Origin: a bacterium
GTDB taxonomy: Bacteria; UBA8248
NCBI GenBank assembly: GCA_965261085.1
Contig: OZ253442.1
Location: 3,616,001-3,680,000, forward strand
Direction of reading: 5' to 3'
Length of the DNA stretch: 64,000 bases
This document shows, piece by piece, positions 2,904 through 56,110 of this stretch. Made by a program: the position numbers and the translations under genes. Each line of letters begins with the position of its first letter. Position 1 is the stretch's first letter. The notes beneath the pieces are model-generated. The model made no database searches, was not told where the DNA came from, and saw only the letters and a program-made list of their open reading frames with translations.

Positions 2904-3018
2904 ATCCTGGGACTTTAGATTCTGCAAGGGCGGCTCGCGAGCCGCCCCTACGAAAAAACGCGCTCTCGCGCTCTAGGTCAAACGGGCACAATTTCCCCTT
3001 CTCGGCGATGCACAATGC

Positions 3019-3044
3019 GGGCGGACACATAGGTCCGCCCCTAC
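3019..3044 (-). repeat. GTAG-type REP (inverted partner of 2068-2093)
   Basis: Exact reverse complement; a further REP lies at 2928-2951. Confidence 0.85.
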
Positions 3045-3385
3045 AAAATTTATTCATGATGGGGAATCATCACACAACATCGTCATTCCGATAGGGCAGC
3101 GAACAACACTCCTCCCTTGAGGGTCATTGTCGACCGATGAGGGAGGTTTTGCTTCGGATGAGAAACACACCGGTTAACAATTCTTCGCTCCTCGCTTGGA
3201 ATAATTCTTCTTTTCTCAGTCGGAATTCCCCCCACCGGTTCGGTTGCGGGCTTACGCCCTTACCCCACCGTCGGACTTTCCCCTCGGAAAGCCCGACCCT
3301 CAAGGGAGTGAATATATGACCACTCATGTTTCTGATGAGAGGCAGTCCCCCGCGCCTGTTCTGAACGCATCCTCCCTGAGGAAGA

Positions 3386-3445
3386 ACAATCACGGGGGGC
3401 AGGACAACCACGGGGGGCAGGACAACCACGGGGGGTTGTCCCTAC
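3386..3445 (+). repeat. 18-bp tandem repeat ending in a CTAC REP-like palindrome
   Basis: ACAA(T/C)CACGGGGGGCAGG units followed by GGACAACCACGGGGGGTTGTCCCTAC. Confidence 0.7.
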
Positions 3446-3582
3446 GTTCGAGAACGAACCCTCCCCTCCATATGCCCGGCCTTGCGGACGCAACCCTGCG
3501 AGGCCACAATGCGCTCGCCTCCTCTCAGGAGCACAGCGGCGGTTCACGAACCATTTCTCAAGAGACGAAAAAGGGAGACGCC

Positions 3583-4578
3583 ATGAGCAAGCCGTCCGTT
3601 ACGATAGTGACGACCGGGGGGACGATTTCATCCAAATACGACACGCGGGGAGGGGAGAACGTGCCTGCGGCGAGTGCGGAGGAGTTGGTCGCTTCGGTTC
3701 CTGAACTCAGCAGTGCGGCCCAAGTGCGCGTCGTCGAGCACTCGAACGTCACCAGCGACGTCTTGGAAACGTCCACGGCCTTCGGCCTTCGCGACCGCCT
3801 GCGCGGGATTCTGGCGGATGAGGAGACGGCCGGGGCGGTCATCACCCACGGGACCGCCACCATGGAGGAGACGGCCTATCTCTTAGACCTCACCCTGGGC
3901 GGCGAGAAGCCCGTGGTGATTACGGGCGCGATGCGCAACGCCGTCGCCCGGGACGCGGACGGACCCCGGAACATCTTCTACGCCGCGAAGATCGCAGCAG
4001 ACCCCGAAACGCGGGGCCGGGGCGTGCTGGTCGCGCTGGACGGCGAGATATTCGCCGCGCGGGACGTCATCAAGGTGCACAGCCAGCGGCCCCATGCCTT
4101 CGCCTCCAGAGACGGCGGGCCTATCGGCGTCGTCTCGGATGAGGGCGTCTTCTTTCACTACCGCCCCGAGCGGCGGCTTCACTTCGAGGTCGACGCCGTG
4201 AAGGAAAACGTGCAGTTCCTCACCGTGACCCAGGGGGTGAACGACCTGCTCGTGCGCGCGTGCATTCGGGAGGGAGTGGACGGCATCGTGGTGGAAGGCG
4301 TCGGCGCGGGCAACGTGAACGTTCCCTTTTATCACGCCCTGTGCGACGCGCTTGCGGCGGGAATCCCCGTGGTGATGGGGGTGCGCATCTTCGCGGGCGC
4401 GCCGCACCGCGCAAAGGCCCACGCGGGCTCGTTCCGGAGCCTGCTCGAGCGCGGAGCGATATCCGCAGGCTATCTGAGCGGAATCAAGGCCCGGATTCTG
4501 CTGATGGTGGCGCTGGCGCATACGCAGGATTTAGGAGAGTTGCAGGATATTTTCGAGCGGGCGGGCGGACGAGCGTAA
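3583..4578 (+). CDS. L-asparaginase/glutaminase family protein
   Basis: TTGGTI, HGTATMEETAY, ITGAMR motifs; start placed at ATG 3583 after GGGAG RBS. Confidence 0.93.
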   Translation: MSKPSVTIVTTGGTISSKYDTRGGENVPAASAEELVASVPELSSAAQVRVVEHSNVTSDVLETSTAFGLRDRLRGILADEETAGAVITHGTATMEETAYLLDLTLGGEKPVVITGAMRNAVARDADGPRNIFYAAKIAADPETRGRGVLVALDGEIFAARDVIKVHSQRPHAFASRDGGPIGVVSDEGVFFHYRPERRLHFEVDAVKENVQFLTVTQGVNDLLVRACIREGVDGIVVEGVGAGNVNVPFYHALCDALAAGIPVVMGVRIFAGAPHRAKAHAGSFRSLLERGAISAGYLSGIKARILLMVALAHTQDLGELQDIFERAGGRA

Positions 4579-52607: not shown

Positions 52608-53588
52608 ATGGTTTTAAGTCCACCCGCAAAAGACGGCCCGCTCATCGCCGTCGCCGGAACGCGCTTCGGCCCACCCACCATTGAGGAGGAGATACTCGCC
52701 CCTATGGGTTCTCGCCTGCGTCTGGGTATGGGCGCGGACGGAGAATCATTGATCGAACTCTGCGCGGAGGCGGAGGGCGTCATTATCGGCGCGATTCCGA
52801 AATTCACCGCCGGGGTCATCGCACAACTAAAGCATTGCAAAATCCTCGCGCGCGGAGGCGTGGGGGTGGACAACATCGATCTTGAAGCCGCGCGGGAAAA
52901 AGGGATTCAGGTCACCTTCGTGCCCGATTACTGCGTCGATGAGGTATCGGACCACGCCATGGCATTGATCCTCTATTTCGCCCGAAAACTCGAACAAGGG
53001 ATCACGGAAGTCAAAAAAGGCGGATGGGGGATCGCCTCGCTCCGGCCCATCGCCCCGCTGCGGGGCGCGACATTGGGTATAGTGGGCATCGGGAGAATCG
53101 GCGCAGCTTTGGCCGGGAAGGCGCGCGCCTTCGGGATGCGGATCATCGCGCACGATCCTTTCGCGCCAGAATCCGTTTTCGAGGAGTCAGGAGCCGGGAA
53201 AGTCGCGCTTTCCCGGATATGGGAAGAGTCCGACTACGTTTCCCTGCACTCGCCCTTGACGCCCGAAACCCGGGGCATGGTGAACGCCGAAGCACTCGAG
53301 CGCATGAAGACGGACGCCGTTTTGATCAACGTGGCGCGCGGCGAACTCGTGGACGAGAAGGCGCTGGCCAGTGCTCTAAAGAAAAACGCCATCCGGGGCG
53401 CGGGCCTCGACGTGCTCGAAGAAGAACCCCCGCCTCCGGGTCACCCCCTGCTCGGGCTGCCCAACTGCCGCGTCACGCCGCACAGCGCGTGGTACAGCAC
53501 GGCGGCTCTCGAAGACATGAGGCGAAAGGCGGCGACAGATGTACTGCGCGTGCTGCGTGGGGAGAAACCACGCTATCCTGTGGAGTGA
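52608..53588 (+). CDS. D-2-hydroxyacid dehydrogenase (CtBP/SerA-like)
   Basis: GVGVDNID, GIGRIG, NVARG and TPHSAW motifs. Confidence 0.93.
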   Translation: MVLSPPAKDGPLIAVAGTRFGPPTIEEEILAPMGSRLRLGMGADGESLIELCAEAEGVIIGAIPKFTAGVIAQLKHCKILARGGVGVDNIDLEAAREKGIQVTFVPDYCVDEVSDHAMALILYFARKLEQGITEVKKGGWGIASLRPIAPLRGATLGIVGIGRIGAALAGKARAFGMRIIAHDPFAPESVFEESGAGKVALSRIWEESDYVSLHSPLTPETRGMVNAEALERMKTDAVLINVARGELVDEKALASALKKNAIRGAGLDVLEEEPPPPGHPLLGLPNCRVTPHSAWYSTAALEDMRRKAATDVLRVLRGEKPRYPVE

Positions 53589-53611
53589 TTGAATCTCGGC
53601 AGGTGGATGGG

Positions 53612-54460
53612 CTACTTTTCTATCGGAAAACCGACGACGCTGCCCCACTCCGTCCATGAGCCGTCATATATTTTCACGTTTTCATAGCCCAGCAGATACC
53701 GCATGGCGAACCAGACCAGACTGGCCCGGTGGCTCAGCCGTCAGTAGAGGACGAGTTCGATCTCATCATCGGGCGCAGCGCCTGCGCCGCTGAGAATTTT
53801 CCCGAGTTCCTCCGTACTCTTGTAGGTGTCGTCCGCATTCAGCAGTTCGCGGAAAAACAGGTGCACCGAACCCGGTATGCGCCCGGCGCGCTCGGCCCCG
53901 TGGTCGAGACCCGGCGGGGGCATCACCCGCTCGCCCCTGTATTCCTCGGGCGAGCGCACGTCGAGCAACACCCTGCCCGGCTCGCCGAGCCTGTCGCGGA
54001 TATCGTCCCTGCCCACGCTCAAGACTTCCGCTTCATCCGGCGCGGGGTGGGCGACGGCCACAGCACCCGGCGCCTCGCTCGAGACGGGCATCCCGTCGGC
54101 AATCCATTTTTTCTTCGCGCCATCGAGGAGCTTCAGATTCGTGAAGCCCGCCATCTTCAGGACCCAATACGCATAGGTTCCGAACTGCACCGGCTCACCA
54201 TAGAGAACAATGGTCGCATCCGGCCCAACCCCCATGCGGCCCAACTGCTCCGCCAACGCCCCGGGCGCGGCGAACGCGCGGTCCGTCTCGTGCCAAAGGG
54301 CCCCTTTCCAGAACCACCAGTGCGCCCCTGGCACATGGGCTTCACGGTAGGAGGCGTCGTCATTGGCTGATGAAACCTCGATGACGTGTACATTCGGACT
54401 CCCTAGGTGTTCTGAGAGCCACGCGGTAGAAACGAGCGCGGAATTATCGGTTTGCGTCAT
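53612..54460 (-). CDS. Two-domain sulfurtransferase (rhodanese) with in-frame UGA at the catalytic Cys; probable selenoprotein
   Basis: [18 protein letters not shown], then LY-UGA-RLSHRAS...YDGSWTEWG...IEK-TAG in one frame. Confidence 0.85.
53710..53730 (-). promoter_or_regulatory. Candidate bacterial SECIS element
   Basis: ACCGGGCCA-GUC-UGGUCUGGU hairpin; loop G-U begins 19 nt after the UGA at 53741-53743. Confidence 0.6.
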
Positions 54461-54526
54461 ATCTGAATACCCTCACTATAAGAAAACAAGTAGAAAAATC
54501 GCGTCATGAAAATCTTTTCAGAAAAT

Positions 54527-55951
54527 TCACCCGCCGAACATCGGGGGCTTTTCCCGCCGTATATCCGGCGTGGCTTCTTCGTACGCATGGGACGCCTGCA
54601 GCACGCGGGCTTCCTCCCAGGGCGGCCCCACGAACTGGACCGATACCGGCAGGCCATCGGCGCTGAAGCCGGACGGCGCGGCCATGGCCGGAAAACCGAA
54701 CAGATTGTAAGGGCCGGTCTGGGGCCTGCCGAGGCCCGAGAAGGGGACTTCCACCCCGTTCACGCTGCCCATCGTAGTCGCAATAGGCGCAGCGGGACAG
54801 GGGTAGCCCGGCGCCAGGAGGATGTCGATTTCACCAAACACCTTTTCCATCTCCCGGGTGACTATCCGCCGCTCCCTGCAGGCGCGCACGTAGTCATCGA
54901 GCGTCACGCGGTTCACCGACTCCAGGCGGTCGCGCACGTCCTCGCCGAACATTTCGGGATGCTCACTAAACCGCTCGCGATGCACCACCGCCAGTTCGGC
55001 CCCTGCGATCATGCCGCGCACCTCGTTCATCTGCTCGGCGTGTGGGTAGCGCACCTGAACGATGACGCCGCCCAGACCCTTCAAGGTTTCTATCGCCTGC
55101 TCGAAGCCATTTTGGACCGATTCGTCGTTTTCAGAAAGGTGCAGATCTTCGCAAAGCCCGAAACGCATCCCCTCGACGCCCTGGCCTATCAGGGCGCAGA
55201 AATCAGGCGTTTCCCGATCTTCCGAGCCTGGGTCCGCCGGGTCGTAGCCCGCCATGGCCTGGAGCATGAGGCCGCAATCGCGCGCCGTTCTGGCGAGCGG
55301 GCCGGCGTGGTCGAGGCTGGGAGAGTTCGGGAAAATACCGCGAAGGCTCACCCGCCCGTAGGTGGGCTTCAGGCCCATCGTTCCGCATGCGCTCGCAGGC
55401 CCCCGGATGGAGCCGCCCGTGTCGGTTCCCACGGCGGCGGGGCACATGAAGGCCGCGACGGAAGCACCCGAACCCCCGCTCGATCCGCCCGCAACCCGCT
55501 CGGTATTCCAGGGGTTCCGGCACGGGCCGTAATGGGGATTCACGGTGGTGGAGCCCGCCGCGAACTCGTGCGTGTTGCATTTCCCGATGATGAGGGCGCC
55601 CGCAGCTTTCAGCTTTCTCACGCACTCCGCATCTTCGGCGGGCACGTTTTCCGGGAAAAAACTCGATCCCTGCGTCGTCAGCACGCCCGCGGTATCCACG
55701 ATGTCCTTGATGCCTACGGGTATCCCGTGGAGCGGCCCCCGGTAGTTTCCGCCCTGAATCTCATCCTCCGCCTTTTTGGCGTCCTCACGCGCCTCATCCG
55801 CGCACACGGTGATGAACGCGTTAATCTCAGGGTTTAAGGCCTCGATGTGGCGTAAATGCGCGTCCACCACCTCGCGCGGGGAGATTTTCTTTTGCTCGAT
55901 CTGCTGGGCGAGTTCATATAATGAGAGAAAATTCAGTCCATCGGCGCTCAT
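54527..55951 (-). CDS. Amidase signature family protein (GatA-like)
   Basis: GPLHGIP, KD, GGSSGGS and GTDTGGSIR motifs. Confidence 0.93.
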   Translation of the reverse strand: MSADGLNFLSLYELAQQIEQKKISPREVVDAHLRHIEALNPEINAFITVCADEAREDAKKAEDEIQGGNYRGPLHGIPVGIKDIVDTAGVLTTQGSSFFPENVPAEDAECVRKLKAAGALIIGKCNTHEFAAGSTTVNPHYGPCRNPWNTERVAGGSSGGSGASVAAFMCPAAVGTDTGGSIRGPASACGTMGLKPTYGRVSLRGIFPNSPSLDHAGPLARTARDCGLMLQAMAGYDPADPGSEDRETPDFCALIGQGVEGMRFGLCEDLHLSENDESVQNGFEQAIETLKGLGGVIVQVRYPHAEQMNEVRGMIAGAELAVVHRERFSEHPEMFGEDVRDRLESVNRVTLDDYVRACRERRIVTREMEKVFGEIDILLAPGYPCPAAPIATTMGSVNGVEVPFSGLGRPQTGPYNLFGFPAMAAPSGFSADGLPVSVQFVGPPWEEARVLQASHAYEEATPDIRREKPPMFGG

Positions 55952-56110
55952 TTTCACCTCCATACCACCTGTGTGAATTTTATTTGGCTTCCGCCTGGTT
56001 GATTGAATATCACCTTACCATGACCGGGCGATCTTCGCCCTCACCGCAGGAGATTTCTTCCTCTTCCAAGTCGAATGCGCACTTGAATGGCAGCGCGTGC
56101 GGCAGAAAAA

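Follow-up and report, generated by a model that had tools for sequence, protein, structure and literature searches.

On the minus strand of contig OZ253442.1 (assembly GCA_965261085.1; GTDB lineage UBA8248), within the stretch of 64,000 nucleotides (nt) analysed here (positions 3,616,001 to 3,680,000 of the contig; from here on the window, whose own numbering is used unless stated otherwise), lies an open reading frame (ORF) of 239 amino acids (54460..53741) that ends in ...ELVLY and then runs into a TGA (53743-53741). A first-pass annotation of this DNA had pointed out that the same frame continues for 42 codons past the TGA up to a TAG (53614-53612), and translation confirmed this. Read with the TGA as selenocysteine (Sec, U), the frame would encode a rhodanese sulfurtransferase of 282 residues. 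We hold it to be very likely that this is a genuine, mis-annotated selenoprotein gene, encoding a tandem-domain rhodanese of the thiosulfate-sulfurtransferase type with a catalytic Sec. The features on which this proposal is built are:

53612..54460, minus strand: complete coding sequence (CDS) of the two-domain rhodanese sulfurtransferase, 282 residues with U240, TAG included (translation with TGA read as U)
53741..53743, minus strand: in-frame UGA, codon 240, with the predicted reading Sec, opening the active-site loop U-R-L-S-H-R (alignment and orthologues)
53612..53614, minus strand: true terminal stop TAG (ORF reading and translation)
53642..54007, minus strand: C-terminal catalytic rhodanese domain, residues 152-273 (best Pfam stretch, profile positions 3-100 of 102)
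53710..53730, minus strand: putative bacterial Sec insertion sequence (SECIS) hairpin with 5' arm 53730-53722, loop G-U-C 53721-53719 and 3' arm 53718-53710 (minimum free energy (MFE) fold)
53702..53731, minus strand: invariant run of 30 nt (CDS nt 730-759) spanning the hairpin (no change in 21 species)

The Pfam family Rhodanese (PF00581) matches the 282-residue translation in two stretches (E 7.2e-31, 107 bits; cut-off 22.2), and the solved tandem rhodanese 1uar aligns with it over the full length (E 8.3e-63; residues 8-282 on 8-282), so that reading through the TGA does restore the intact C-terminal part of a rhodanese, as had been claimed. The alignment with 3aax has an E value of 1.7e-54. 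In both alignments U240 falls on the catalytic Cys of the Y-C-R active-site loop (YCRIAERS in 1uar), which is where the first-pass annotation had put the TGA. The corresponding site of the N-terminal domain reads V-L-Y-G, without Cys or Sec; the nucleophile is predicted to be the first loop residue of the C-terminal domain only, Sec replacing Cys. The solved tandem rhodaneses 1uar ('Rhodanese'), 3aax/3aay and 3hwi (putative thiosulfate sulfurtransferases) have their catalytic Cys at the position of U240 and a 10-residue C-terminal motif in common with the protein, but they carry cysteine, their loop residues 3-5 are I-A/G-E rather than L-S-H, and none of them is a selenoprotein. The Arg residues at loop positions 2 and 6 resemble those of the thiosulfate-sulfurtransferase-like solved chains. 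The match to 1urh is weaker (E 1.7e-22 versus 8.3e-63 for 1uar), and the NCBIfam equivalog model of the 3-mercaptopyruvate sulfurtransferase SseA (NF008557) scores 98.7 bits and thus stays below its cut-off of 250.

Orthologues were collected by a six-frame search of species-representative genomes, which covered 51 genomes of the phylum, and from a further 46 loci, including loci of named metagenome-assembled genomes (MAGs). The genus to which the genome belongs was placed within Nitrospinota/Nitrospinaceae. In 20 of the 22 other species genomes of this genus the search found the orthologue in full length, at 77-92% identity and with a single TGA. In another (G003) the gene is broken across two contigs, with the TGA inside the C-terminal piece, and in the last (G018, 79% complete) no orthologue match was found. 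Codon 240 is TGA in all 21 full-length genes of the genus (the present gene and the 20 others), which have a 21-letter reading around the site in common. In the other genera of the phylum all matches are without TGA, one partial match (G062) bearing TAG. The codon is TGC in 22 of the 22 orthologues read outside the genus, from other genera and phyla: nine from sister genera, which read Y-TGC-R-L-S/G-H-R-A-T-L, and 13 with the same reading from named MAGs of Nitrospinota, Rokubacteria/Methylomirabilota, Chloroflexota and Actinomycetota. The pairing of Cys with UGA among homologues, proposed as a check by the first-pass annotation, is thus clear-cut. The Cys-type orthologues (Y-C-R-L-S-H-R; JGI annotation thiosulfate/3-mercaptopyruvate sulfurtransferase) are 50-64% identical to the protein over the full length, have the same two-domain layout and a loop that is alike except for its first residue. 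They differ in having TGC for UGA, in encoding Thr (ACN) instead of the Ser (AGU) of the Sec genes, and in lacking the frozen 30-nt element described below.

Two irregularities were seen among the loci. In G006 (L012, about 2592-2672) residues 46-72 of the rhodanese are encoded a second time (92.6% identity) immediately before the gene, and at L041 the matched stretch (3001-4172) is 1172 nt long instead of 846 nt. Both suggest a small local duplication or insertion.

The genome, a single contig of 4.27 Mb, contains what is needed for Sec synthesis and insertion; all four genes that the first-pass annotation had wanted to see (selA, selB, selC and selD) were found. In profile searches selA scored 514 bits, the wing-3 (winged-helix) domain of SelB, encoded about 2.7 kb from selA, 74 bits, and selD 336 bits; a tRNA-SeC with the anticodon tca is also present. 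The selD gene (C1:3459-4421, minus strand, outside the window) has an in-frame TGA of its own where the Sec/Cys site is known to lie, in the context K-A-G-G-*-G-S-K, followed by a hairpin (GGUCC-GGA-GGACC) whose loop GGA lies 17 nt past the UGA. Ordinarily TGA is a stop codon in this organism, as seen in the adjoining upstream amidase gene, which terminates in TGA. Of the 21 Sec orthologues (L010-L030), nine terminate in TGA, six in TAG and six in TAA. TGA thus terminates some of the very same mRNAs 42 codons past the recoded TGA, from which it follows that the recoding is local.

Downstream of the UGA the first-pass annotation had described a hairpin at 53710-53730 with G-U opening its loop 19 nt from the UGA, and folding returned just this structure: 9 bp in 21 nt, -12.0 kcal/mol, with 19 nt between UGA and loop. 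According to the model for bacterial SECIS elements by Zhang and Gladyshev (2005), cited in the accessible text of a 2026 review (PMC13188914), the loop has 3-9 nt and the stem 4-16 bp, a G stands within the first two loop positions and is mostly followed by G or U, the spacing from UGA to loop is 16-37 nt, and the MFE is at most -7.5 kcal/mol. With its loop of 3 nt, stem of 9 bp, G followed by U, spacing of 19 nt and energy of -12.0 kcal/mol the hairpin agrees with the model on all four counts, and the geometry does fit a bacterial SECIS element, as had been supposed. SelB binding to it is predicted.

What sets the hairpin apart is its conservation. All nine pairs and the GUC loop are kept in 21 of the 21 Sec genes, and the 30-nt run that spans it is the longest invariant stretch in the gene (the runner-up has 14 nt). 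Within codons 244-253, none of the eight codons that are degenerate and invariant in amino acid varies among the Sec genes, as against 107 of 126 such codons elsewhere in the gene (Fisher p 1e-6, a value that is overstated, the species being kin). The corresponding codons of the nine Cys genes from the sister genera each take 2-6 forms, and nowhere do these genes have an invariant run of more than 5 nt.

These observations bear on the explanation that competes best with a Sec-encoding gene, namely that the UGA is read through without Sec, either by a near-cognate tRNA that brings in Cys or Trp or by tRNA(Sec) charged with Cys under selenium scarcity, the product being an ordinary or an inactive rhodanese. 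In favour of it, conservation downstream of the codon (see below) proves that this part is translated but does not tell which amino acid stands at position 240. The explanation does not account for the complete Sec machinery in the genome, nor for a hairpin of the SECIS-model type at the canonical distance whose nucleotides are frozen in the UGA-bearing genes only. Moreover, for a cell in need of Cys, TGC would be the cheaper route, one step away and used by all 22 orthologues outside the genus. We regard read-through without Sec as improbable.

Still less probable is that the TGA is a genuine stop, which would leave a truncated rhodanese of 239 residues, a pseudogene or a regulatory remnant, followed by 126 untranslated nt. 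Such a stop would agree with TGA being the normal stop in the genome and with the public gene calls, which end there: of the 120 matches listed from the protein database, the closest (74-95% identity) have 237-239 amino acids and end at this codon, Cys forms of 256-317 amino acids coming next at 56-65% identity. Yet the 42 codons past the TGA are open in 21 species, and of their 42 columns 21 show synonymous variation only and nine amino-acid changes. The pairwise nucleotide identity among the 21 Sec genes is 0.74-0.95; its mean is 0.90 over the 126 nt from the UGA to the terminal stop and falls to 0.29 over the next 54 nt. By this pattern of substitutions the codons after the UGA are judged to be under protein-level selection and translated. 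A product ending at residue 239 would also have lost its entire catalytic loop, along with the domain's last strands.

That the TGA is a sequencing or assembly error for TGC or TGT, for which no supporting point was found, can be set aside as having next to no probability: TGA stands in 21 independently assembled species genomes and in the split copy of G003, and it is unchanged in contigs assembled from two runs that belong to two studies (one of the runs may be the source sample), X1 (record 1, 53471-53953) and X4 (record 24, 53400-54223), both of which cover the codon and whose 8 and 17 differences, respectively, all of them listed, lie elsewhere than 53741-53743. The first-pass annotation had been prepared to give up its inference of a Sec-containing two-domain sulfurtransferase if the genome had no Sec machinery, if UGA was absent in all relatives or if reads had TGC or TGT at this place. 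On all three scores the outcome was favourable, and the inference is supported.

X19, an RNA library, has a contig (record 17, 53596-53797) that takes in the UGA together with the hairpin and the final TAG; it shows five differences, and the four of them that are listed fall outside the invariant run. Cover by the RNA libraries is patchy (19 of 30 bins in X17, 22 of 30 in X19), and such libraries can contain DNA.

Several points weigh against the proposal that the gene encodes a selenoprotein, or at least take something from its evidence. The X19 contig is weak evidence of transcription, since DNA can contaminate RNA libraries. All Sec genes were found within one genus, so that one evolutionary event is counted 21 times. 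A hairpin that fits, with at least nine contiguous pairs, also follows 279 of 20,000 random TGA trinucleotides of the genome (1.4%); by itself the hairpin is unusual and not decisive, and it is the comparative evidence that lifts it far above chance. Nor does its fold energy stand out (z -0.97 over 71 nt; sixth among the 828 windows of 21 nt in the gene); in a gene so rich in G+C this measure is uninformative, for which reason the comparative evidence was used instead. The hairpin is identical in all 21 genes and hence offers no compensatory base changes in support of the pairing, so that in this respect it stands apart from the SECIS model by being invariant and without covariation. An alternative register is possible, with 8 bp, a loop of 6 nt and -10.6 kcal/mol. 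There is no matching Rfam family, the Rfam copy used apparently holding no applicable bacterial SECIS family; the scan of 53500-53900 at E <= 10 gave three chance-level matches, each far under its gathering score. Finally, between five and nine of the nine pairs are already formed in the 22 Cys genes when the register is kept (eight pairs in ten genes, seven in nine, and five, six and nine in one each), which means that the stem is in part a by-product of the conserved peptide H-R-A-T/S-L-V-W. The loops of all 22 begin with C. The one Cys gene forming all nine pairs is L072 (from an Actinomycetes MAG, codon TGC), with the loop CGC.

The origin of the Sec genes was followed with a maximum-likelihood tree of 45 proteins; left out were L059, L070, L071 and L040-L056 (G-handle duplicates or partial) and L073-L085 (distant). 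In the tree the 21 Sec genes with the loop U-R-L-S-H-R (URLSHR) come together in one clade, with support 100/98, that lies within the Cys forms. From this topology we conclude that a Cys form was converted once to the URLSHR form, at the base of a single genus of Nitrospinota. The steps may have been few. Going from the nearest Cys sequences (L031 and L057) to the frozen hairpin, the changes CGC to CGG, CTC to CTG, ACC to AGU and TGC to TGA would suffice; the first two are synonymous, and the third turns Thr into Ser and supplies the G-U of the loop. The near-palindrome encoded by the conserved H-R-A-T-L-V-W could then be regarded as a pre-adaptation.

Two paralogues are encoded elsewhere in the genome, outside the window. 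One (C1:2773880-2774659, plus strand) is likewise a tandem rhodanese with a catalytic TGA, 31% identical, with the loop Y-U-Q-T-G-Y-R-A-A-H; its hairpin (ACCGUGC-GGC-GCACGGU) has the loop 17 nt past the UGA. The other (C1:610908-611663, minus strand) is a tandem rhodanese with Cys in the loop L-C-Q-G-G-Y-R, 37% identical over residues 39-281. In the tree the Sec paralogue groups with the Cys one, and a very long branch separates it from the URLSHR clade. Since the Sec label requires two changes on the tree, two independent conversions of Cys to Sec have to be assumed.

Sec-containing rhodaneses have been predicted before and are poorly characterised; in this the first-pass annotation agrees with the literature. 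A 2005 study of the Sargasso Sea (PMC1088965) predicted a Sec 'rhodanese-related sulfurtransferase' (COG2897); the accessible part of its supplement has the reading Y-u-Q-A-G-V-R-A-A-H and also a TGA followed by codons for Q-G-G-I-R. The Global Ocean Sampling (GOS) study of 2008 (PMC2398784), in its accessible text, includes the same family (cd01449). Its supplement 3, as far as accessible, contains Y-U-Q-[AG]-G-[IV]-R types, COG0607 types, a 'COG2897' read with G-G-P-T-U-G-F-S and a 'rhodanese-like' type, and among these Sec rhodanese sequences the reading U-R-L-S-H-R is absent. In a 2022 review (PMC9312934) the Sec rhodanese forms stand under the heading 'Predicted', and the accessible text of the 2026 review (PMC13188914) names five forms: UxxS, UxxG, CxU/NF041203, UxxG and TsoB.

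How does the present protein compare with these forms? In the UxxG Sec rhodanese ('form 4'), likewise known from prediction alone, Sec is likewise catalytic and follows a Tyr, but its loop Y-U-Q-[AG]-G-[VI]-R-A-A-H is of the type of the Sec paralogue in the same genome, whereas the loop here is U-R-L-S-H-R and belongs to a separate clade. The NCBIfam model NF041203 (rhodanese_LYCAU, 'form 3, CxU') has a weak similarity to the last 50 residues (42.8 bits, cut-off 115); the model covers one domain only, 126 positions long, and its C-x-U motif has no counterpart in the present protein. 'Form 1' (UxxS) of PMC13188914, known by description only, may be the present clade. The accessible GOS table (PMC2398784) contains a 'rhodanese-like' form, only distantly similar to COG0607, that may correspond to form 1.

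The lineage is known to be rich in selenoproteins: in the accessible text on BSepDB (PMC13326102) the ten top-ranking bacteria include three Nitrospinota-labelled MAGs (GTDB UBA8248), which have 48-54 selenoprotein genes. The gene may already be contained in BSepDB, in whose supplement neither 'rhodanese' nor 'UBA8248' occurs. In the accessible parts of the literature on Nitrospinota selenoproteins and selenocysteine the gene is unmentioned, and that on thiosulfate sulfurtransferase selenoproteins held nothing relevant. The URLSHR Sec form is absent from the published sequences compared; three 'Sulfurtransferase COG2897' sequences of the Olavius paper, outside this comparison, may bear on its novelty. 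Very probably, judging from loop and tree, the URLSHR gene joins a known, predicted kind of Sec rhodanese by way of a separate, recent and genus-restricted switch from Cys to Sec.

For synthesis of the complete protein we envisage that SelB, with GTP and Sec-tRNA(Sec), would bind the hairpin, which lies 13-33 nt past the UGA, that Sec would thereby be delivered to UGA codon 240 instead of release factor 2, and that the ribosome would then proceed 42 codons further, to the TAG. Cys rhodaneses transfer sulfur via a persulfide. By analogy the selenolate of U240 presumably holds sulfane sulfur (or selenium) as Se-S (or Se-Se) and hands it to an acceptor. The anatomy of the gene, the pairing of Sec with Cys, the purifying selection past the UGA, the invariant SECIS-like element and the Sec machinery are seen in the sequences themselves; binding by SelB, the insertion of Sec, the chemistry and the physiological substrate are what we infer from them. 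Rhodanese is reportedly able to carry selenium in vitro (this is said to have been described in a 2001 PNAS paper), which is what motivates a reading in terms of selenium trafficking. In its boldest version, which we consider unlikely, the protein would be an uncatalogued sixth form of Sec rhodanese, its SECIS element exapted from a near-hairpin, that carries selenium instead of sulfur, as a Se-Se adduct on U240, and feeds selenide to SelD in a lineage with about 50 selenoproteins.

Upstream of the rhodanese gene two further features were recorded:

54470..54474, minus strand: Shine-Dalgarno-like GAGGG, 9 nt ahead of the ATG at 54460 (read directly; presumed function)
54527-55963, minus strand: amidase gene (PF01425, E 3.3e-117), with its terminal TGA 66 nt ahead of the rhodanese gene

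The amidase gene adjoins the rhodanese gene in 19 of 19 loci of the genus versus none of 13 loci with Cys forms from other lineages. Downstream of the rhodanese gene follow a convergent 2-hydroxyacid dehydrogenase gene, present in 14 of 19 loci of the genus and in two of 13 Cys-form loci, and a ferredoxin gene. As amidase and dehydrogenase have no obvious link to sulfur or selenium metabolism, no function was deduced from these neighbours, which indicate no substrate. Antisense ORFs over the rhodanese and amidase genes (53729-54370, plus strand, 213 amino acids; 54506-55837, plus strand, 443 amino acids) are likely artefacts of the high G+C content rather than genes.

The finding opens no new category of biology. 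It does matter for annotation: the public gene calls cut the gene at codon 239 in every species examined among the matches listed, and no NCBIfam selenoprotein model reaches its cut-off on the rhodanese, with the consequence that an active enzyme would be missing from the annotations of a whole genus. The comparison of the Sec genus with its Cys sister genera (50-64% identity, same loop), a remarkably clear case, shows what it costs to build a SECIS element in a constrained coding region: the closest Cys sequences are a few bases, mostly synonymous, away from the frozen hairpin, Thr to Ser giving the loop its G-U. One genome thus would harbor two Sec rhodaneses of independent origin besides one Cys paralogue. 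The two origins suggest selection for selenolate chemistry in the sulfur/selenium trafficking of a lineage that, by the accessible text on BSepDB (PMC13326102), is rich in selenoproteins.

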